From Eledone cirrhosa (taxonomy: Eukaryota), in assembly GCA_964016885.1 (NCBI GenBank), contig OZ024753.1, positions 39,060,001-39,124,000 on the forward strand: a stretch of 64,000 nt of DNA, written 5' to 3'. Position numbers and translations under genes: made by a program. The notes under the pieces were generated by a model that saw nothing but the letters and a program-made list of their open reading frames with translations, searched no databases and was not told where the DNA came from. This document shows, piece after piece, positions 8,566 through 62,622 of the stretch (position 1 is the first letter of the stretch; each line of letters begins with the position of its first letter).

Positions 8566-8576
8566 GTATGTTAAAA

Positions 8577-8722
8577 ATAATTGTTTCTACTTTTGGCACA
8601 AGGCCAGCAATTACCCAGTGTATTACTGGTACTTTATTTTATCGACCCCGTGAGGATGAAAGGCAAAGTTAACCTCGGCGGGATTTGAACTCAGATCATA
8701 AAGGGACGTAACTCTATGCGTC
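8577..8722 (-). mobile_element. 5'-truncated Nin/Deu-type SINE
   Basis: Same consensus as the other copies. Confidence 0.85.
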
Positions 8723-9486: not shown

Positions 9487-10200
<714 letters not shown>

Positions 10201-10216
10201 AATTGTATATATATAA

Positions 10217-12309: not shown

Positions 12310-12316
<7 letters not shown>

Positions 12317-12824
12317 ATATTTATATATGTATCTATCTCTATTTCCTCTCTCTATATATATATATATATCTCTTTCGGTCTCTTTACATGAAGCTCTTCG
12401 CTTTATCTATTTTTCCATCTCTCTATTTTGTCCCATGCATTTCTTCTTTTTCTTCTTTTTCTTCCTTTTCTTCGTTTCGTCTTTCTTTCTTTCTTATTTC
12501 CCTCTTTTCTCTCTCTCTTTCTTTCTCTCTGTATTTTCACTGCTAGAGTGAACCTCTTCAAATGAAGTTGATGTTTATTACGGTATGTCGAATATATTTA
12601 TCTATAAAACTGTTTATATTGTATTTTGTCTGATGAAGGCATAGCATATTGTTAATATGATATCCCCGAAATATATATAATGAAATAAATATGGTTTTAT
12701 AAATATAGTTTTCCATTTATTTAATATTGTAAATATACTCCAAGTATTTGTCGAGTGCTTTTATATCAGTTATAAATATTTACTAGTTGTAACCCAACAA
12801 TTTTAAATATAACTTTACATGTAT
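12310..12824 (+). repeat. 5' pseudo-LTR
   Basis: No difference from 16324-16838 seen by eye. Confidence 0.92.
12622..12687 (+). ncRNA. Type I hammerhead ribozyme in 5' pseudo-LTR
   Basis: TATTTTGT-CTGATGA(12630)-AGGCATAGCATATT-GTT-AATATGATATCCCC-GAAA-TATATA-TA^ATGAAATA; predicted cleavage after 12679. HHRs in PLE pseudo-LTRs are established. Confidence 0.8.
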
Positions 12825-12866
12825 CTTGCTCCAATACTGTTGAGCGCTTTATATTATAACTGAAAA

Positions 12867-15080
12867 ATGGAATTCTTTAAGATTACTTCCTCTCTAAAAG
12901 ACATACCTCTACCTAGAAACAAAGACTTTGTAAAACAACTAATAGATAAATCTGACTCTTTTATAAGGAGAATCAGGTGGCGTGCATTCCACTTTGATAA
13001 ATTTAATGCAGACGAAAATATCTCGGACTTAAACAAAGTTTTCAAATCTAAAAGAAATCCACCCCCTAACAAACTTTTATCTGACTTTGAAAACGATATA
13101 ATTTCTATCATACAAGGGGTCAAATTCAAGAGAAACTTTAAAGGCCAGGAATATCTGAAAGGCATTAAGGATAACATTGAGAGCTTAGAGAAAACTGAGA
13201 AGATCTTGGTGAAATCTGACAAGACCAACAACCTCTATGGAGTGCAGAAAGACATGTATAATGGCCTCATACTGAAAGAGCTGAGGAAAAAATACAAGGT
13301 AGCAGATAAGACCGAACTTGTGAAAATGAATGTTGAAGCATCTTGTATAATGCATGAGTTGGAAATTGAGAACAGAACACAACCTTTTGTGCCCAGGAAA
13401 CCGAAGATCAATATGAAGGACCACAAGAGGAATTTTGAGATTGACCTGCCAGTTAGATTAATCGCACCTTCAAAATCGGACCTGGGCAAATTAAGCAAAA
13501 ACATTCTTGACAGGGTGATACTGCAAATTAAGAACTTGGATTATGTATCTAACCTGAGCTTGTGGAAGGGAACCGGAGAGGTTGTTGAGTGGTTTAGGCA
13601 AATTAAATATGACAATAATAATAGGTTTATTCAACTTGATATAGCTAACTATTATTCTTCTATTACCCCTAGTCTACTAAATAAGGCACTAAATTACGCA
13701 TTCAAACATACGGACCTAACTAGCAAAGAAATGCATATTATATTATCGGCTAGGAAAACTTTGATAGAATTTGATGACAAATTATGGACCAGAGCAGATA
13801 GAGATAGCAATTTTGACATAACTATGGGATCTTCCGACTCAGCTCAAGTAACTGACCTTGTGGGCTTATTTTTAATCAATTCGCTACATAGGAAAATACC
13901 TGGTACTACCGGAGGTTTATATAGGGATGACATGCTTTTACTCATTAATAATAATAACCCTGAACTAAATAGAAAATGTAAACAAATTACAAAATTTTTT
14001 AATTACTTTAACCTTAAAATAGAAATTGAGAACAACCATAGAATAGTCAATTTCCTAGATATAACATTAAATCTCAACACATGTCTCCACTATCCTTTTC
14101 ACAAGTTGAATGAAAACTTAAACTATGTCAATTTTAACTCTAACCACCCCAGATCTGTCAAAAACACTATAGTAAACTCAGTCCAAAAGCGTATCTCTAG
14201 GATCTCGTCGAATAGAAAGATTTTTGACGAAAAGGCCCAATACTATAATGATGCACTAGCTAGGGCAGGGTATGCTGATAAGATTGTGTACATAGATAAT
14301 GATAAACAAACTAAACAAAGTAACAACTTTTTTAATTATGGCAACAACATTAACAACTATAATAGAAAGCATTACAATAATTCCAAAGGACAAAAAAGAA
14401 ATAGAACTAGGAACATAATTTGGTTTGCCCCCCCTTTCTCACTAAACATTAAAACCCACATCGCTAAATTATTTTTCAAAGCTCTTGATAATCGCTTCCC
14501 TAGAACACATAGGTACCACTCAATCTTCAATAGGCATACAATTAAATTAACCTATTCATCCACCAAAAATTTAGCACAAAATATTAATAGAATAAATAAT
14601 AGGAACTTAAAAACTACTGATAATAGCATAAATAATATACAAGTTAACAAATGCAACTGTAGAGATAGATCTAAATGTCCGTTAAATAACAACTGCTTAG
14701 TTAAAAATATAGTATACAATTGTAATGTTAATACTGACTCTAATTCTTTTAACTACGTCGGTTCCACATCGACGGAATTTAAACTTCGCTATAATAACCA
14801 CAAGAATTCTTTCACAGATCCAAATAAAAAATCTTCAACGGCACTATCAGGTGTACTCTGGCAACTTAAGCTAGATAACGTTAGATATTCGACGGCTTGG
14901 AATATAGTCTCAAGAGGGATTCCTTTTAATTCATCCTCTGAGACATGTGACCTCTGCGCAGAGGAGATATTCTTTATACTAAAATCTAAAAATTCCCTTA
15001 ACCTACGGACAAATTTATTCAGTTGTTGCAAACATAGATTAAACTCAACGTTTAAATATAAATTTAAATTTAAAATGTAG
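12867..15080 (+). CDS. Penelope-like element protein: reverse transcriptase + C-terminal GIY-YIG endonuclease (probably Naiad clade)
   Basis: 737 aa uninterrupted. PLE RT motifs: SDKTNN, LDIANYYSSI, FDITMGSSDSAQVTDLVG, GLYRDD, NFLDITL, YVNFNSNHP. Cys linker CNCRxxxxCPLxxxC. GIY-YIG variant NIVY...YVGST..FKLRYNNH; CDLC; terminal CCKH. Clade call is from recalled motif style, not a phylogeny. Confidence 0.95.
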   Translation: MEFFKITSSLKDIPLPRNKDFVKQLIDKSDSFIRRIRWRAFHFDKFNADENISDLNKVFKSKRNPPPNKLLSDFENDIISIIQGVKFKRNFKGQEYLKGIKDNIESLEKTEKILVKSDKTNNLYGVQKDMYNGLILKELRKKYKVADKTELVKMNVEASCIMHELEIENRTQPFVPRKPKINMKDHKRNFEIDLPVRLIAPSKSDLGKLSKNILDRVILQIKNLDYVSNLSLWKGTGEVVEWFRQIKYDNNNRFIQLDIANYYSSITPSLLNKALNYAFKHTDLTSKEMHIILSARKTLIEFDDKLWTRADRDSNFDITMGSSDSAQVTDLVGLFLINSLHRKIPGTTGGLYRDDMLLLINNNNPELNRKCKQITKFFNYFNLKIEIENNHRIVNFLDITLNLNTCLHYPFHKLNENLNYVNFNSNHPRSVKNTIVNSVQKRISRISSNRKIFDEKAQYYNDALARAGYADKIVYIDNDKQTKQSNNFFNYGNNINNYNRKHYNNSKGQKRNRTRNIIWFAPPFSLNIKTHIAKLFFKALDNRFPRTHRYHSIFNRHTIKLTYSSTKNLAQNINRINNRNLKTTDNSINNIQVNKCNCRDRSKCPLNNNCLVKNIVYNCNVNTDSNSFNYVGSTSTEFKLRYNNHKNSFTDPNKKSSTALSGVLWQLKLDNVRYSTAWNIVSRGIPFNSSSETCDLCAEEIFFILKSKNSLNLRTNLFSCCKHRLNSTFKYKFKFKM

Positions 15081-15342
15081 TATATTTAGTTTGATTTATA
15101 TTTATATGAGAACTAGCCGATAAATCTTTTGATTCCTAAATCTTTGATTCCCTCTTTTTACTGTTTATTTTATTGTATTTATTTTTATTTTTATTTTTTA
15201 TTTTTATTTTTATCTAAACATTCCTCATGAAAAATTAAGCTACCCTAAAAGCCGATGCTCCAAATTTTATGAATTAACCTTACACTTGATAAACTTATAT
15301 ATTAAATATAGGAACATATGTAGACATTATTGGACATCATAA

Positions 15343-15377
<35 letters not shown>

Positions 15378-16237
15378 GATATTCCTTGCTAGATGTGATT
15401 TGATAGATAATTTTTGGCTTTGTCTTGTAGTGAACTTGGCAATATATTGTCAATTAACCTTGAAGGGTTGTTCTTTGTGGTTTATTTTTTATTTTTATTT
15501 TTATTTTTATTTTTATTTTTATTTTTATTTTTATTTTTATTTTTATTCTTTTAGTATTGTAGTATTCTATAATATTTTTATATTTTTATTTTTTATTTTT
15601 TATTTTATTTTATTTTTATTTTTAATATTTTTATTTTTATTTTTATTATTTTATTTTTAATATTTTTATATGTAAAGTTTTAATACGTAATAATTTTAAA
15701 ACATAGTATTTTTAATATGCAATATTTTTATTATGTAATATTCTTTCGTAATATTCTTTTTTAGTTTTCTATTCTATATTTTTATATTTTTATATATTTT
15801 TACTTATTATCATTATTATTGTTATCTCTGCTTATAATATAATATATATTTTCGATTAGTATATTGAAATCTGCTCTCTATTTCTGCTTGATAGATAATC
15901 TTGTAGAGTAATAGCAAGAATAATAATACGCTCAAATGTTTATACCACATTGAGAATGTTTTCCGGTAACTTTGAATTTGCGGAGTGAATCAGTTGGATT
16001 CACATAGACATATGAATTTTTTAAAAAACTAAACATAAGATAATGAATTTTCACGCATTGTGAATACTTGTTTCATTCAGGAATACTGATATTTACAATG
16101 TAGTGTAAGTTTTATAAATACTAATACATTAAAACATAGGATTTTCTACGCCTCGAATATGTCTGGCTATTTTTAAATTTTTCTCTCTCTATATCTCTCT
16201 ATATCTCTCTATATCTCCCTTACATTAATACTTGAGC

Positions 16238-16272
<35 letters not shown>

Positions 16273-16323
16273 ATGCATCATTGATACACTTACTCAAAAT
16301 GACCTCCCACTACCTAATTTTTC

Positions 16324-16829
16324 TATATCTATATTTATATATGTATCTATCTCTATTTCCTCTCTCTATATATATATATATATCTCTTTCGGTCTCTTTA
16401 CATGAAGCTCTTCGCTTTATCTATTTTTCCATCTCTCTATTTTGTCCCATGCATTTCTTCTTTTTCTTCTTTTTCTTCCTTTTCTTCGTTTCGTCTTTCT
16501 TTCTTTCTTATTTCCCTCTTTTCTCTCTCTCTTTCTTTCTCTCTGTATTTTCACTGCTAGAGTGAACCTCTTCAAATGAAGTTGATGTTTATTACGGTAT
16601 GTCGAATATATTTATCTATAAAACTGTTTATATTGTATTTTGTCTGATGAAGGCATAGCATATTGTTAATATGATATCCCCGAAATATATATAATGAAAT
16701 AAATATGGTTTTATAAATATAGTTTTCCATTTATTTAATATTGTAAATATACTCCAAGTATTTGTCGAGTGCTTTTATATCAGTTATAAATATTTACTAG
16801 TTGTAACCCAACAATTTTAAATATAACTT

Positions 16830-16838
<9 letters not shown>
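16324..16838 (+). repeat. 3' pseudo-LTR
   Basis: Direct repeat of 12310-12824; ends ACATGTA running into (TA)n. Confidence 0.92.
16636..16701 (+). ncRNA. Type I hammerhead ribozyme in 3' pseudo-LTR
   Basis: Same sequence as the 5' copy; CTGATGA at 16644, predicted cleavage after 16693. Confidence 0.8.
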
Positions 16839-16923: not shown

Positions 16924-17116
16924 ACAAAGGAATTGTGGTAAGGGACCCGATGGACCATAACGCAAAAGAGTACTCAATACTTAGGGTAGTCGAGTAGGAA
17001 ATAGGAAAAACTATGACCCCGACGGCAGAGCTCAAGCCGTTTCGACGGCTATTTCTGAGTCCAGAAATAGCCGTCGAAACGGCTTGAGCTCTGCCGTTGG
17101 GGGCATACTTTTTCAT
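16921..17116. mobile_element. Asymmetric palindromic mini-element, family B
   Basis: CCCCGACGGCAGAGCTCAAGCCGTTTCGACGGCTATTTCTG inverted around ~17058; between (TA)n tracts; other copies at 6571, 23827, 29936, 35271, 37906, 46918, 59880. Confidence 0.8.
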
Positions 17117-17117
17117 A

Positions 17118-17314
<197 letters not shown>

Positions 17315-21327: not shown

Positions 21328-21797
21328 ACATGCAAAAGTTTTATTTACAATTGTTGGGTTACAACAAGTAAATATTTTATAACCGATATAAAGCACTCGA
21401 CAAGTTTTTGGAGTAGATATACGATAGTAAACAAATGGAAACTATATTTATAAAACCATATTTATTTCATTATACTTATTTCAGGGATACCATATTAAAA
21501 ATATGGCATGCCTTCGTCAGATAAAATACAATATATAAACTGTTTTATAAATAATTTTGACGTACCATAAATATAAGCCACCATTAAGGTAGGAAGCTCT
21601 AATAAGACTACCAAGCCAGCTTCCTACCTTAATGGTGGCTTATATTTATGGTACGTCAAAATTATTTATAAATCAGTTTATATATTGTATTTTATCTGAC
21701 GAAGGCATGCCATATTTTTAATATGGTATCCCTGAAATAAGTATAATGAAATAAATATGGTTTTATAAATATAGTTTCCATTTGTTTACTATCGTAT
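21328..21797. mobile_element. Palindromic family A mini-element, HHR on both strands
   Basis: ~180-bp arms (21419-21797, centre ~21608); left arm carries the full pseudo-LTR-like 3' end; clear homology to 12580-12824. Confidence 0.88.
21688..21753 (+). ncRNA. Type I hammerhead ribozyme, CUGACGA variant (mirror copy ~21462-21528 minus)
   Basis: TATTTTAT-CTGACGA-AGGCATGCCATATT-TTT-AATATGGTATCCCT-GAAA-TAAGTA-TA-ATGAAATA. Confidence 0.75.
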
Positions 21798-22100
21798 ATA
21801 TATATATATATATATGCAGGCGTACGCACGTATATATATAAATAAGTTAATTTAAAAAAAAAATTTTTTTTTAAAATTTTCTTATTTTACGTCTTTTATA
21901 TTATTGTTCTGCATTCTCCTGCATCGAACCACCTAGGTACTATGACATAACCTGTGTATTTGCTGGCATTGGCGTACATCTGTGCGCTTATGTTAGTAGA
22001 TATATTAAATTATCTCTCTATATATATATATATATATATATAAAAAAAAATATATATATATAATAAATATATATATATATATAAATATATATATATATAA

Positions 22101-22194
<94 letters not shown>

Positions 22195-22342
22195 CGGTTA
22201 AAATACTGGAGTGTGTTAGAGTTAAATACCCTCTTCGTATTATAGAAATGACAGTAAAAGGTATAGCTCAATGTAGTTAAACAGAGCCGAAAAATTAAGA
22301 GAGTAAAGCAAAGAAGCCTTCAATACATCAAAAGTCTTTATT

Positions 22343-22382
22343 AGCCGACAATGTTTCGTCCTATTAAGGACTCATCAGGGCA
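22343..22382 (-). ncRNA. Minimal type I hammerhead ribozyme
   Basis: Minus strand GCC-CTGATGA-GTCC-TTAATA-GGAC-GAAA-CATTG-TC-GGC: canonical core, G10.1-C11.1, GUC cleavage triplet. Confidence 0.88.
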
Positions 22383-22771
22383 ATCAAAACAACAAGAAGT
22401 AATATCGGCAGATACAAGCCGGAAGCTCCGAAGAATATGGAGTGTACATACACTGGAGTATTACAAAAATATATAATAAAAATATATGATAAAAATATAT
22501 GATAAAAAATTACTAAGGATGTATATAACACTAAGAACCATATTACAAATATAGTCCAAAGCAAAAACTAGAGCTAAACAAAAACTTTTTGCTTTGGACT
22601 ATATTTGTAATATGGTTCTTAGTGTTATATACATCCTTAGTAATTTTTTATCATATATTTTTATCATATATTTTTATTATATATTTTTGTAATACTCCAG
22701 TGTATGTACACTCCATATTCTCCGGAGCTTCCGGCTTGTATCTGCCGATATTACTTCTTGTTGTTTTGATT

Positions 22772-22808
22772 GCCCTGATGAGTCCTTAATAGACGAAACA
22801 TTGTCGGC
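22772..22808 (+). ncRNA. Minimal type I hammerhead ribozyme (mirror copy, one G deleted in stem II)
   Basis: GCC-CTGATGA-GTC-CTTAATA-GAC-GAAA-CATTG-TC-GGC. Confidence 0.82.
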
Positions 22809-22852
22809 TCATAAAGACTTTTGATGTATTGAGGCTTCTTTGTTTTACTCTC

Positions 22853-22922
<70 letters not shown>

Positions 22923-24039: not shown

Positions 24040-24075
<36 letters not shown>

Positions 24076-24082
<7 letters not shown>

Positions 24083-25922
24083 TTGGAATAAATGCTCTGA
24101 AATAGCGATATATATGTGAATATAGACATAGAATATTCGAAAATATTCTGTATGTTTATAATAAACATTTTGAAGACCTAATCGCTATAGAATAGAATAC
24201 GTCACGTATTACAATTATATTCTCGATAAAAGCAAGGGAAGTAATCTACGCGTTTCATTCTTATTAGAAATCTTCAGGACTACATATCCAGTGCTTTTAT
24301 CGAGAATGACACAGCTAGAGACTTATAGAATACTTAGCTGTGTACAGGAACTGGTTTGAAAGAGCGGTTGCCGGTCCGGCAGAAATTAGAAATTGGAATA
24401 AATGCTCTGAAATAGCGATATATATGTGAATATAGACATAGAATATTCGAAAATATTCTGTATGTTTATAATAAACATTTTGAAGACCTAATCGCTATAG
24501 AATAGAATACGTCACGTATTACAATTATATTCTCGATAAAAGCAAGGGAAGTAATCTACGCGTTTCATTCTTATTAGAAATCTTCAGGACTACATATCCA
24601 GTGCTTTTATCGAGAATGACACAGCTAGAGACTTATAGAATACTTAGCTGTGTACAGGAACTGTATTCTATGTCTATATTCACATATATATCGCTATTTC
24701 AGAGCATTTATTCCAATTTCTAATTTCTGCCGGACCGGCAACCGCTCTTTCAAACCAGTTCCTGTACACAGCTAAGTATTCTATAAGTCTCTAGCTGTGT
24801 CATTCTCGATAAAAGCACTGGATATGTAGTCCTGAAGATTTCTAATAAGAATGAAACGCGTAGATTACTTCCCTTGCTTTTATCGAGAATATAATTGTAA
24901 TACGTGACGTATTCTATTCTATAGCGATTAGGTCTTCAAAATGTTTATTATAAACATACAGAATATTTTCGAATATTCTATGTCTATATTCACATATATA
25001 TCGCTATTTCAGAGCATTTATTCCAATTTCTAATTTCTGCCGGACCGGCAACCGCTCTTTCAAACCAGTTCCTGTACACAGCTAAGTATTCTATAAGTCT
25101 CTAGCTGTGTCATTCTCGATAAAAGCACTGGATATGTAGTCCTGAAGATTTCTAATAAGAATGAAACGCGTAGATTACTTCCCTTGCTTTTATCGAGAAT
25201 ATAATTGTAATACGTGACGTATTCTATTCTATAGCGATTAGGTCTTCAAAATGTTTATTATAAACATACAGAATATTTTCGAATATTCTATGTCTATATT
25301 CACATATATATCGCTATTTCAGAGCATTTATTCCAATTTCTAATTTCTGCCGGACCGGCAACCGCTCTTTCAAACCAGTTCCTGTACACAGCTAAGTATT
25401 CTATAAGTCTCTAGCTGTGTCATTCTCGATAAAAGCACTGGATATGTAGTCCTGAAGATTTCTAATAAGAATGAAACGCGTAGATTACTTCCCTTGCTTT
25501 TATCGAGAATATAATTGTAATACGTGACGTATTCTATTCTATAGCGATTAGGTCTTCAAAATGTTTATTATAAACATACAGAATATTTCGAATATTCTAT
25601 GTCTATATTCACATATATATCGCTATTTCAGAGCATTTATTCCAATTTCTAATTTCTGCCGGACCGGCAACCGCTCTTTCAAACCAGTTCCTGTACACAG
25701 CTAAGTATTCTATAAGTCTCTAGCTGTGTCATTCTCGATAAAAGCACTGGATATGTAGTCCTGAAGATTTCTAATAAGAATGAAACGCGTAGATTACTTC
25801 CCTTGCTTTTATCGAGAATATAATTGTAATACGTGACGTATTCTATTCTATAGCGATTAGGTCTTCAAAATGTTTATTATAAACATACAGAATATTTTCG
25901 AATATTCTATGTCTATATTCAT
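24076..25922. mobile_element. 310-bp hammerhead tandem array (non-LTR retrozyme-like): ~1.9 copies minus + ~4 copies plus, head-to-head
   Basis: Period 310 (one unit 309); inversion at 24663/24664; each unit has GTAGTC-CTGAAGA-TTTC-TAATAA-GAAT-GAAA-CGCG-TA-GATTAC; plus cores at 24832, 25142, 25452, 25761 and minus cores at 24277, 24587; TA repeats at both ends. Confidence 0.9.
24802..24890 (+). ncRNA. Hammerhead ribozyme of the 310-bp unit (representative copy)
   Basis: Core as above with palindromic CGCG stem III; stem I extended past an internal loop by a perfect 16-bp helix ATTCTCGATAAAAGCA/TGCTTTTATCGAGAAT. Confidence 0.85.
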
Positions 25923-25927
25923 ATATA

Positions 25928-26402
25928 TATTGTTATACTTGGGGAGGGTCATATTTGTGTAATATTGCCAGAATTATAACAGAAGACACTCACTGTTTGG
26001 TTGGTTTTCGCTTTTCGAAATAAAATAAACAAATAAATAAATATATAAACAGACTAAATAAAGATGGCGTAGAAAATACAATGCAACGAGAGGAAACAAT
26101 AGCACCACTGACGATGTTGCAAATGTGCAACGAAAGAACTTTGATAAACTATATATATGTGTTTGTGGTCTATATTGTATCTGTATTATTTTTGACCGTT
26201 GGTCAGTCAATGGCAACATTGAGGACCGAATAAATTAGATTACCGATATAAAAGACACAGAAGCGAAAAGCGAAAAGCGAAAACCAACCAAACAGTGAGT
26301 GTGATCTGTTATTAATTCTGGCAATATTACACAAATATGACCCTCCCCAAGTATAACAATATTTGTTTCGACACACGATTTCATATAAAAAACCTCGCAA
26401 AA
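25928..26402. mobile_element. Asymmetric inverted-repeat element, family F
   Basis: ~90-bp inverted arms (25928-26017 / ~26271-26362) plus ~40-nt right extension; related sequence at 8962-9160. Confidence 0.65.
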
Positions 26403-37905: not shown

Positions 37906-38096
37906 TAACGAAAGAAATGTGGTAAGGAAACAAGTGGACCATAACGCACCAAAGTACTCAATACTTAGGGTAGTAGAGTGGGTAATAGGAACGAGTAGGA
38001 CTCCGACGGCTGAGCTCAAGCCGTTTCGACGGCTAATTCTGGACCAGAATTAGCCGTCGAAACGGCTTGAGCTCAGCCGTCGGGGTCCTACTCGTT

Positions 38097-38100
<4 letters not shown>
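37906..38100. mobile_element. Family B mini-element
   Basis: Near-perfect ~56-bp arms (37986-38100) centred ~38043. Confidence 0.82.
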
Positions 38101-38146
<46 letters not shown>

Positions 38147-38544: not shown

Positions 38545-39097
38545 GATTTCATTTATTGACCACAAGGGCCGACTTGTAGGGTACAATACAAAGACACAGA
38601 CAGTGGGGGTTTATAATTGTTTCTAATTTTGGCACAAGGCCAGCAATTGCCTAGTGTATTACTGGTACTTTATTTTATCGACCCCGTAAGGATGAAAGGC
38701 AAAGTTAACCTTGGCGGGATTTGAACTCAGAATGGCAAGGACCGTAACTCTATGCGTCAAAGCATGGTGTCCGACCTTCTACCGATACTACCAATCCACC
38801 GCTCTTGGGGGCGTTTATAATAAAGTCGGGATTTATAATAAAGTCGGGGTTTATAATAAAGTCGAGTAATAGTGCACAATGGCAAGACTAATTTAACAAT
38901 GAAGATATAAAAATATGAAATAAACTATGCATAAATATAACAAAATAAATTCCCCTATAGGGGGTGGACGACCCAGGGGTGACTCAAGTACCCCACCAAT
39001 CCTGAACCACCCTGCGCTTCTAGGGCATCCAGGGAGAGTACCCCTCTCCTCCTCAAATTAGCTGGCTTATAGGCGCATGGTCAGAGTAGACCCATTA
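38545..39097 (-). mobile_element. Diverged L1/Tx1-like 3' UTR interrupted by a SINE (~38612-38805)
   Basis: TTTCATTTATTGACCACAAGGG start and GC-rich blocks colinear with 11118-11390; SINE flanked by GTTTATAAT direct repeats; flanked by (AAT)n. Confidence 0.55.
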
Positions 39098-39114: not shown

Positions 39115-40726
39115 ATTCTTTCTACTTCTACAATTCCAGCAATTTTGTGGGAAGGGAAAGTCGATTAAATCGACACCAGTGAATTACAGGTGCTTTATTT
39201 TATCGAGCCCATAAGGATGAAATTCAAATCTAACCTCAGTGGGATCTGAACTCAGAACGTAAGAGGTCGTAAGTCTAACAACAATAACAACAACAATAAC
39301 AACAATAATTGTTTCTACTTTTGGCACAAGGCCAGCAATTATCTCAGTGTATTACTGGTACTTTATTTTATCGACCCCGTAAGGATGAAAGGCAAAGTTA
39401 ACCTCGGCGGGATTTGAACTCAGACCATAATAGGCCGTAACTCTTTGCTGAAAGTATGGTGTCAGACCCTCTACCGATACTGACAATCCATCGCCCTTAT
39501 GTTTACTAATTTAGGCACAGGGACATCCATTTTACGGGAGGGAAAAGTCGATTAAATCGACCCCAGTGTATTACTGGTGTTTCAATTTATCGACAAAAGG
39601 ATGAAAGGCAAAGTTAACCTCGGCGGGATTTGAACTCAGTCCGTAAAGGAACGTAACTGTGCTGCAAAACATGGCGTCCGACCCTCTACCGATACTGACA
39701 ATCCACCACCCTCAATAACAACAACAATAATAACGATTTATTTTGGTTAGCCATAAGGCCTAGTTTATATGGGTCGGTATATATTTGATTGAATTGACCC
39801 CATAATATTTACTTGTGTATATTTAATCATCTTCAGCAAATTAATACAAATACTTAAAAAGTAAGATGTGCCGGGAAAGAAGAGAACATGATGTCTGGTG
39901 ATAATAATTATTATGACAGATTTCTCAATTTTTGATGAAGTTCCCCCAAGCTAGTAGTGTATTGGTGAACATAAATGAATAACTCATCTGCATATAATAT
40001 ATCTAGGGCAAATATGCCTGTGGGTGGTAGTAGTTTTGGTGGTAGAGGTGTTGTAAGTGGTGATGGTTGAGTCTATTTCTCATCATGTTCCACCCATTAT
40101 TGTGGATTTAAACTTGGAATGAAGCGGAACGAAAAAATATTGTAAACACTTTTTTTATTTCCCAGTACTGTTGTATTTATGGCAGTGATTTGGCAGAATG
40201 ATTAAAACGTTGGATTGAATGCTTTGCGGTATTCCTCCCGGTTTCCTTTCTCTGTGCCGAGATTAACTTTGCCTTTCAACCTTCTGGGGTTCAATAAACT
40301 ATAGTATGAATCAAGTACTTGGGTCTATATAATCGACTAACCCCTCCCCTAAAGTAATGCCCTTGTGCTCAAATTATGGCCCTTTACGTTCTGAGTTCAA
40401 ATGCTACCGAGGTTAGATTTGCCTTTCATCCTTTTGTCGATAAATTGAAGCACCAGTAATACACTGGGGTCGATTTAATCGACTTTTCCCTCCCGTAAAA
40501 TGGATGTCCCTGTGCCTAAATTAGTAAACATAAGGGCGATGGATTGTCAGTATCGGTAGAGGGTCTGACACCATACTTTCAGCAAAGAGTTACGGCCTGT
40601 TATGGTCTAAGTTTAAATCCCGCCGAGGTTAACTTTGCCTTTCATCCTTATAGGGTCGATAAAATAAAGTACCAGTAATACACTGGGATAATTGCTGGCC
40701 TTCTGCCAAAAGTAGAAACAATTATT
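39115..40726. mobile_element. Cluster of ~6 Nin/Deu-type SINEs (3 minus, 3 plus)
   Basis: Repeated SINE consensus; 39304-39612 is inverted at 40418-40726. Confidence 0.85.
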
Positions 40727-41535: not shown

Positions 41536-41810
<275 letters not shown>

Positions 41811-45038: not shown

Positions 45039-45089
45039 CGTGCGTGCATGTGTGCGTGTCTGAGTTACATTATATTTACCAGTAATTAA

Positions 45090-45330
45090 GAGGCGGTGGA
45101 TTGGCAGTATCGGTAGAGGGACGGATCCGCCATGCTTTCCAGCATAGTTACGTCCCTTTACGATCTGAGTTCAAATCCCGCCGAGGTTGACTTTGCCTTT
45201 CATCCTTACGGGGTCGATAAAATAAAGTACCAGTAATGCACTGGGTATTTGCTGGCCTTGTGCCTAAAGTAGAAACAATTATATTTACCAGTAATGCACT
45301 GGGTATTTGCCTAAAGCAGAAACAATTATA
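45090..45330 (+). mobile_element. Full-length Nin/Deu-type SINE with duplicated 3' end
   Basis: GGCGGTGGATTGGCAGTATCGG...GAGTTCAAATCC...; TACCAGTAATGCACTGGGTATTTGC repeated. Confidence 0.88.
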
Positions 45331-50896: not shown

Positions 50897-51328
50897 AAAG
50901 TTAAACAAGGTTCAATGAATACATCAACGAATGAGTTTTACAATAGATTGGAAGCACTCAACTGCAAAAAGGTTTTCCAGAGTTATTAATATTAATTTAA
51001 AATATTAACAAAATAGATATTCTTGTGAACAAGTATATTTTATTATACATATTTCAGAGCTACTGAGTTAAGTTCAACAGTACGTACTCATCAGATAAAA
51101 TAAGATGATGCATGACATACCCTGACATAGTAGATGGTTAAGATTCAGTCATAGTATTACCATGACTGAATATTAACCATCTACTATGTCAGGGTATGTC
51201 ATGCATCATCTCATTTTATCTGATGAGGACGTACTGTTGAACTTAACTCAGTACTTCTGAAATATGTATAATAAAATATACTTGATCACAAGAATATCTA
51301 TTTTGTTAATATTTTGAATTAATATTAT
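50897..51328. mobile_element. Palindromic mini-element (divergent family A), HHR on both strands
   Basis: ~165-bp arms (50988-51328, centre ~51156) plus ~90-nt left extension; between (TA)n tracts. Confidence 0.85.
51213..51277 (+). ncRNA. Type I hammerhead ribozyme (mirror copy ~51037-51101 minus)
   Basis: ATTTTAT-CTGATGA-GGACGTACTG-TTGAACTTAACT-CAGTACTTCT-GAAA-TATGTA-TA-ATAAAAT. Confidence 0.78.
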
Positions 51329-51432: not shown

Positions 51433-51629
51433 TTATTCCGGGTTGAGTCGGAGGTAACCACAGTAAGTAAGGTACTCAATACATAGCAGAGTATAAAAGT
51501 TTTAATATAGAAGAGCTTCTACAGGACTAGAACTGTTTCATTCGTGAGAAATCATCAGAGCTTCCTGATGATTTCTCACGAATGAAACAGTTCTAGTCCT
51601 GTAGAAGCTCTACTATATTAAAACTTTTC
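51433..51629. mobile_element. Family D palindromic mini-element with back-to-back HHRs
   Basis: Arms 51495-51629 centred ~51561; left extension carries the family 3' end. Confidence 0.85.
51557..51611 (+). ncRNA. Type I hammerhead ribozyme
   Basis: AGAGCTTC-CTGATGA-TTTC-TCAC-GAAT-GAAA-CAG-TTCTAGTC-CTG-TA-GAAGCTCT: 8-bp stem I, 3-bp stem III. Confidence 0.85.
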
Positions 51630-52751: not shown

Positions 52752-52823
<72 letters not shown>

Positions 52824-52830
<7 letters not shown>

Positions 52831-53166
52831 AAGTTATATTTAAAATTGTTGGGTTACAACTAGTAAATATTTATAACTGATATAAAAGCACTCGACAAAT
52901 ATTTGGAGTATATTTACAATATTAAATAAATGGAAAACTATATTTATAAAACCATATCTATTTCATTATATATATTTCGGGGATATCATATTAACAATAT
53001 GCTATGCCTTCATCAGACAAAATACAATATAAACATATTTATCTATAAAACTGTTTATATTGTATTTTGTCTGATGAAGGCATAGCATATTGTTAATATG
53101 ATATCCCCGAAATATATATAATGAAATAGATATGGTTTTATAAATATAGTTTTCCATTTATTTAAT

Positions 53167-53172
<6 letters not shown>
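52824..53172. mobile_element. Palindromic solo pseudo-LTR derivative of the local PLE, HHR on both strands
   Basis: 52824-53034 is the reverse complement of the pseudo-LTR 3' part; 53035-53172 is a direct copy; near-identical to 12592-12824; HHR cores at 53016 (-) and 53071 (+). Confidence 0.92.
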
Positions 53173-53265
<93 letters not shown>

Positions 53266-61581: not shown

Positions 61582-61767
61582 GGATTGGCAGTATCGGTAG
61601 AGGGTCGGACGCCATTCTTTACAGCAAAAGGTTACGGCCCTTTATGGTCTGAGTTCAAATCCCACCGAGATTAACTTTCCCTTTCATCCTTACGGAGTCG
61701 ATAAAATAAAGTACCAGTAATGCACTGGATAATTGCTGGCCTTGTGCCAAAAGTAGAAACAATTATT
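61582..61767 (+). mobile_element. Nin/Deu-type SINE
   Basis: Same consensus as 45090-45280. Confidence 0.85.
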
Positions 61768-62622
61768 AACGTAGATCTCGGTTAGATACATCGCGACATC
61801 GTGTATGACAAGGAGACCTTTTTTGCCAGCAGAATGGACTGATGTACAGAGACATAAAGCCGCGTCATGCGCAAGGACACAATACGCCGTCAGATATCGA
61901 ACCCCCGGTATTCCGAGCGTGAACTGACGAGCGTGAACTGAACATACTAATAACTGTTAGGCAACTTCACATATATACATCATAATATAGACACCATCTC
62001 GTATATACCCAGACAAAATATAACAAAATAAATGAAAATTATACAAAACAGAAAATTGTCAACGAAAACCTGACAAAGAATATACCTTATATATATATAA
62101 GAGTTAAAGACTGAAAGAAACAAAAACCAAAAATACCAAAATATATACAAAAAAAAAAAAAAACGAAATCTAAGAAATAAAACTATATAGACATTTGAAT
62201 ATTTGGACGATATCGCGAATTCTGTAGAAGTGGTGCAATGTAGAAGAAACTGAAAGAAACGGAAAAAAAAAATATATATATATATATTAGAAGACACAAA
62301 AAAAAAACAAAAAAAAAACATCAACAACAATACAAAAAACCCTGGTAAACCACGAAAAACGAAATCGTTTTAAACCGTTGTGCATTATTGAAATAGTTTG
62401 TTGGAAAATTTCTCCAGGCAGTTTGATGTGTCCAATTTTTTTTTATCTTTGCATATAAATATATCTAATAATTTATTTCTTAAATTTTATTTCTATTTTT
62501 CAAAGCTAAATACTTGTAAGAAGCACGTGCTTGGCTAGTATTGGGAGCGAAAAAAAGAAAGAAAAAAGTAGAAACACAAAATAGAGATTCATTTCTTTTT
62601 TTCCCCTAATTTTTATTTTACT

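Follow-up and report, generated by a model that had tools for sequence, protein, structure and literature searches.

A Penelope-like element palindrome in Eledone cirrhosa whose two arms carry the same putative RNA edit

A 351-base palindrome at positions 52822-53172 of the window, the 64,000-nucleotide stretch of Eledone cirrhosa contig OZ024753.1 analysed here (assembly GCA_964016885.1, positions 39,060,001 to 39,124,000), consists of two pieces of a Hydra-type Penelope-like element, both from its 3′ repeat and placed head to head, and is a one-off insertion of such an element into (TA)n. The palindrome is a real, ordinary-looking Penelope insertion product, and the variant shared by its arms is more informative than first thought, for a different reason. 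In our preferred reading, to which we assign a probability of about 0.6, both cut strands of the target prime on a single sense RNA, where their start sites are 93 nt apart, and the shared G is an A-to-I edit that this RNA already carried. The features below use repeat positions 1-515, counted from window position 16324.

12310..16838, plus strand: local full-length Penelope-like element, with identical 515-nt direct repeats at 12310-12824 and 16324-16838
12867..15080, plus strand: intact open reading frame (ORF), 737 aa from ATG, with reverse transcriptase, a C-terminal GIY-YIG-type endonuclease and Hydra-clade motifs
52752..52824, no strand: left (TA)n flank, presumed target
52822..53035, minus strand: tail-bearing arm, repeat positions 302-515, its 3′ end facing left into (TA)n
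52822..52914, minus strand: 93-nt tail, positions 423-515, on the left arm only, with lineage marker A435 at 52902
52958, minus strand: G379 of the left arm, where the local element has A; putative fossil A-to-I edit
52959..53024, minus strand: hammerhead-type motif of the left arm, the same as in the right arm
53035, no strand: head-to-head junction with 1-nt microhomology (shared base A); the spanning 40-mer is unique in the genome
53035..53172, plus strand: tail-less arm, positions 285-422, its 3′ end facing right into (TA)n
53036-53051, plus strand: bases inside the tail-less arm that have no partner in the left arm
53063..53128, plus strand: hammerhead-type motif of the right arm, with 8-bp stem I, CUGAUGA core, stem II and GAAA; predicted cut after 53120
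53129, plus strand: G379 of the right arm, the same G as in the left arm
53171..53262, no strand: right (TA)n flank, presumed target; a target-site duplication is not discernible inside (TA)n

The two arms are 100% identical across their whole overlap, positions 302-422, and are unequal at both ends, with the 93-nt tail on the left only and 17 extra inner bases on the right only. Each arm has sequence that is absent from the other; as neither span contains the other, neither arm is a simple copy of its partner. Among contigs from unlabelled sequencing runs, mostly of older subfamilies, the change at 379 is not one of the listed variants and no contig bridges the junction; neither result is informative about the palindrome.

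The local element has a unit of 4014 nt. Its single ORF combines reverse transcriptase with a C-terminal GIY-YIG domain, and the family includes both partial tandems (pseudo-LTRs) and inverted 5′-truncated copies, as is typical of endonuclease-bearing Penelope-like elements. An alignment of the ORF with 14 of the 26 relatives found contains the reverse transcriptase motifs, DKT, CxCX5C, a GIY-YIG-type core in which IVY...YVG is visible, and CxxC...CxH. Searches of the ORF against Pfam, NCBIfam and PDB returned no match, and Pfam GIY-YIG gave a weak match in 1 of 15 members, which was not the query ORF. Judged by its motifs, the element fits the description of the Hydra clade in section 11 of PMC8557442: it has DKT, an RWK-like motif corresponding to RW-R/K, the CxCX5C linker, CxxC and CxH around E and N (CxxC...E...N...CxH), outer ends at a (TA)n target, and the core and stems of a hammerhead motif. 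Its unit of about 4.0 kb exceeds the length of generally <3 kb given there, which in that section is a tendency rather than a strict criterion.

The earlier note on this DNA had claimed that both arms differ from the local pseudo-LTR by the same variant, and this is what we find: G379 stands at 52958 and 53129, and the local repeats have A at 12688 and 16702. The motif at the variant site has 8 matches with at most one mismatch, compared with 0.92 expected by chance. The further claim that the palindrome was built from the local element does not survive, because the left arm has a second difference from it, G435A at 52902; position 435 is a marker linked to ORF variants (r2 0.83), and the local copy has G435. 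The local element is a member of the same family and, on this marker, not the donor of the palindrome. As to its proximity, the chance of a family insertion lying within 36 kb is about 6%. The family is young and large: in the 3.0-Gb genome, the A form of an exact 45-mer has 3,663 occurrences and the G form 468, so that G is present in about one copy in nine, whatever the lineage.

Agreement between arms is a general property of this family. We collected palindromes with 225-255 nt between two 31-mers; at position 379, the 496 palindromes comprise 428 AA, 66 GG and 2 mixed, compared with 116 mixed expected. Discordant arms, which would have spoken against a common origin, are thus rare, and the proposal that both arms derive from the same template in one event holds well beyond the window. 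Long-spaced arms also agree (7 GG, 13 AA and 2 mixed, both of the latter explained by different copies or templates). With the hypermutated locus L144 and the diverged locus L149 removed, private differences between arms number 57 and shared private variants 21; later conversion is therefore too weak to produce the observed concordance, and homogenisation, which the earlier note had offered as the other possible cause, is not supported as the main one. The 21 shared variants lie in roughly 25 kb, a frequency close to that of private variants in a single copy, so lost donors suffice to explain them. Of four tested shared private changes of kinds that editing cannot make, three occur nowhere else in the genome, and such locus-unique changes fit arm-to-arm copying as well as lost donors.

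Position 379 behaves unlike the rest of the repeat. G379 has an r2 of at most 0.01 with ten repeat markers, whereas the flanking markers 325 and 400 are linked to each other at r2 1.00, and its r2 with any recurrent variant, including those in the ORF, is at most 0.10. The same change at neighbouring adenosines was found in 5 and 0 matches, compared with 468 for G379, making G379 about 100-fold commoner, and C or T at position 379 was found in 7. In a sister subfamily, the same change recurs in 278 of 3,984 matches (7%), again mostly in pairs. Copies that precede an ORF, and so resemble donors, have G379 in 3 of 166 cases (1.8%), compared with 7-11% overall. By linkage, then, G379 is not a lineage allele. 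The view that it is the allele of a sister donor is contradicted by this absence of linkage, by its recurrence in another subfamily and by its rarity in donor-like copies, and a search for a full-length donor with G, as the earlier note had advised, found none that matches: each of the two young-family copies with G that extend to the ORF start has G435. A hotspot of DNA mutation would give mixed arms, which are rare. A G that is not a lineage allele and is seldom mixed between arms would mostly arise on the way from donor DNA to insertion, before the arms part. The change is A-to-G only and confined to a single site, as expected of site-selective A-to-I editing, and such editing of the sense RNA would be the simplest cause of G379; no G donor is needed if this is so.

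Full-length tandems rarely carry the variant. We fetched 40 tandems of the A type (L216-L255), 39 of them with a readable downstream repeat, and found G there in 0 of 39. Both tandems with an upstream G, L197 and L282, also have a downstream G, implying that G is in some cases passed on by donors or else set once for each molecule; both are full-length G/G elements, and that of L197 has a frameshifted ORF. A third locus, L280, appeared to be a discordant tandem and proved to be two adjacent insertions. In L216-L255, the upstream repeats begin at various distances, up to 1.5 kb, ahead of the repeat, upstream and downstream repeats differ at 14 positions in 6,566 nt, hinting at a circular or re-read template, and the ORF has at least 737 aa in 14 of 40. 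By class of insertion, the G frequency is 0.185 where only a tail-less arm is present, 0.119 with two arms and 0.067 with a tail only (P 0.08), a difference that editing by itself would not lead one to expect.

The variant site is the first base beyond stem I of the hammerhead-type motif. This motif was identified by eye and by folding, and an Rfam search gave no hammerhead match. Position 325 (window 16648) is the variable N of the CUGANGA core; subfamilies differ in which of several bases they have there, and a hammerhead under selection should show such variation. A379 is unpaired in the best folds or else sits at a G-A mismatch past stem I, with no convincing duplex around it, which weighs against editing; a helix pairing A379 with C293 was discarded, having only 7 bp and being absent from the best folds.

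A second probable signature of editing comes from hypermutated insertions. Loci L113, L127 and L144 carry 115, 31 and 79 rare A-to-G changes, respectively; in L113 and L127 the hypermutated block lies upstream, with position 379 changed separately. The arms of L144 have 62 and 63 sense-strand A-to-G changes over 883 nt, of which 61 are common to both; their direct alignment has no substitutions away from the end, and genome-wide the pattern occurs only in these two arms. Because the arms lie on opposite DNA strands and the changes keep sense-strand polarity, the change is placed in the sense RNA. Hypermutated copies avoid adenosines with a 5′ G (1 of 71, 4 of 66 and 2 of 62), which is the known preference of ADAR, and A_deamin domains are encoded in the genome. 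Hypermutation occurs at 3 of 8 long G loci and 0 of 24 long A loci (P 0.011); the sister subfamily does not reproduce this link (0 of 8 and 0 of 10), and the pooled counts are 3 of 16 and 0 of 34 (P 0.03).

The ends of the insertions are strictly paired. We parsed 155 junctions, 129 after duplicate removal; five loci (an old-subfamily pair and rearranged copies) were dropped, and the window's own copy stands outside the class counts. Among 110 insertions with both ends resolved, 105 have one tail-bearing end (512-515) and one tail-less end (422), and the same pairing holds in 81 of the 84 picked by the 45-mer only. These outer ends are fixed, at positions 422 and 512-515, and both run into TA. 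At the junctions there is either microhomology of 0-6 nt or a short insert, in some cases templated by sequence close by; such junctions may resemble polymerase-theta joins. Inner ends cluster at 225-250, which is probably the 5′ end of the RNA. Arms that end at the common inner boundary (positions 215-250) are paired with arms reaching further upstream in 2 of 86 cases, compared with 23.7 expected. Seven tail arms stop at 398-419, just beyond the other start site (1.9 expected, P 0.004, with the interval chosen post hoc), and five, ending at 441-472, have no overlap with their partner arm.

Several loci depart from this scheme. The rare insertion L114 has two tail-bearing ends, and its arms differ at 9 of 1,260 sites, probably reflecting two templates. 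L196, a short G insertion, ends 30 nt beyond position 515, a possible third start site. In L105, the tail-less arm has G, and the other arm, with A, spans the whole unit and stops at 472 of the upstream copy, as if the two primers had drawn on separate repeat copies within a single tandem RNA. What looked like a grouping of 5′ ends near -323 was set aside as an alignment break, and a cap-derived G ahead of position 230 had weak support (8 of 25).

Strict end pairing, concordance at an unlinked site and shared hypermutation patterns together support priming at two sites on one RNA. Both target strands would be cut and both ends would prime reverse transcription, starting at two sites 93 nt apart on one sense RNA already edited, presumably by ADAR, at adenosine 379. 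The trailing enzyme would displace the first cDNA from the RNA, and the 3′ ends of the two cDNAs would then meet head to head, their joining mediated by microhomology of 0-6 nt or by short templated inserts. In the window palindrome, both cDNAs would have stopped early, at 302 and 285, and joined through one base. LINE-1 twin priming also yields an inversion when two target ends prime on one RNA; there the second primer is opportunistic and the two parts barely overlap, whereas here the sites are fixed and the same stretch of RNA is present in both arms. A related enzyme, that of the Poseidon element PAc, cleaves both strands in vitro, extends both of them and initiates at two positions, which set the limits of the tail (PMC11167929). 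The part of that study considered here reports no difference in start site between the two strands, which counts against our mechanism, and does not show the use of one RNA by insertion products; here, moreover, both ends lie at TA matching the target, unlike in PAc. More tentatively, with the odds somewhat against it, twin priming might be programmed, with a dimer acting on one RNA at one site per tail boundary and inverted pseudo-LTRs as its normal product. The edited adenosine by the hammerhead would then barcode the template RNA, written into the germline several hundred times and largely kept from full-length tandems, so that the edit may steer RNAs away from productive replication.

The strongest competitor, which we nevertheless consider unlikely, is that one arm was for the most part copied from the DNA of the other: the longer cDNA would fold back or switch template, copy itself and anneal to a short cDNA at the other end, duplicating at 379 either an edit or a hotspot of misincorporation by reverse transcriptase. 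Locus-unique transversions common to both arms fit this, as do the many near-symmetric junctions (inner ends at most 20 nt apart in 56 of 80 short insertions), the tendency of G to be commoner in tail-less arms and the frequent stopping of tail cDNAs just past position 422. Non-overlapping arm pairs, however, are direct joins of two primed cDNAs, and copying would be needed in about 98% of events to leave 2 mixed palindromes in 496. A strictly A-to-G change (468 compared with 7) that also occurs in six tail-only insertions is likewise against it, and lost donors suffice for the shared private variants. That the two ends prime on two different RNAs, which agree because one donor dominates in a cell, seems to us improbable. 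A dimeric enzyme is predicted in PMC11167929, and L114 suggests that two templates can be used; yet the identical edit patterns of L144 would need a hypermutated donor, of which the assembly has none, and both the agreement at an unlinked site and the class of arms ending at the common inner boundary would be left unexplained.

A shade less probable again, and already largely refuted, is the earlier note's idea that G marks the sister donor lineage that made the G palindromes: the G/G elements L197 and L282 do exist, but G is unlinked to all markers, present in two subfamilies and rare in donor-like copies, and the two G copies running into the ORF start lack the palindrome's A435. We find it very hard to credit that the arms arose independently and were later homogenised by hairpin-driven conversion, even if locus-unique shared variants and short spacers that favour hairpins could be read in that way. 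At most 21 variants are shared where 57 private differences remain; by arithmetic, conversion at that rate would leave about 30 mixed palindromes rather than 2, long-spaced arms are concordant too, and older palindromes in the window retain 1-7% arm differences. Least credible of all is copying of the palindrome as a unit, a non-autonomous mini-element. A few junctions do recur near position 230, in four pairs of loci, but these have unrelated flanks, with the arm types swapped in 2 of the 4 pairs, and the junction of the window palindrome occurs once in the genome, which refutes for this copy the mini-element architecture that the earlier note had seen in it.

Two-site priming on one RNA would bear on known elements. 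An inverted pseudo-LTR copy and a one-sided tail have already been published for endonuclease-bearing Penelope-like elements (PMC3846280, PMC8557442), and in the parts of these papers considered here such elements have head-to-head, 5′-truncated copies, a tail at one end only and a microsatellite target, as here. Their tail is 30-40 nt long and optional, whereas here it is 93 nt long and the pairing of tail and no tail is near-obligate. The origin of these inverted repeats and one-sided tails is called unsettled in the corresponding parts of PMC3846280, PMC8557442 and PMC11167929. The self-priming on an antisense template proposed in PMC3846280 is at odds with the sense-strand A-to-G marks, which point to a sense RNA, at least for these copies. 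Marks of ADAR in replicons, as described in the part of PMC12925331 considered here, include the amber/W site of hepatitis delta virus (HDV) and hypermutated avian retroviruses. These share with our case a site-selective edit in replicon RNA and the fixation of A-to-G in DNA by reverse transcription; our case differs in that the record, spread over hundreds of chromosomal insertions, is of a single non-coding site, a putative edit without assigned function. Literature searches (Penelope with twin priming, hammerhead with A-to-I, ADAR) that covered openly accessible papers found no single-site hotspot and no strict end pairing. These two features are thus apparently new, and the inverted repeat and the tail are known.

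The young family offers thousands of natural insertion products with a built-in mark, and these speak for a single sense RNA with two fixed priming sites rather than for antisense self-priming, a claim that the in vitro system already in use could test. Should G be an edit, then a single editing site is on record in the genome, its level, about 7-13%, being readable from DNA alone, and such hotspots would mislead subfamily trees.

The window holds further repeats. Older relatives of the 515-nt repeat lie at 21328-21802 and 9764-10213, where they form asymmetric palindromes, again with one tail-bearing and one tail-less end and with A at 379, and at 41654-41805, as a single tail-less arm. Another young family is present at 24075-25936 as a 589-nt perfect inverted repeat of tandem units of about 310 nt. 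A second abundant family has 353-nt inverted arms at 39304-40726 and pieces at 427-780, 2146-2325, 8572-8722, 38609-38806, 45087-45287 and 61582-61770. An automated repeat search of the window returned mostly microsatellites. Further palindromes, unrelated to the 515-nt repeat, are found at 22294-22857, 50987-51327, 51495-51628, 17001-17118 and 37985-38101.
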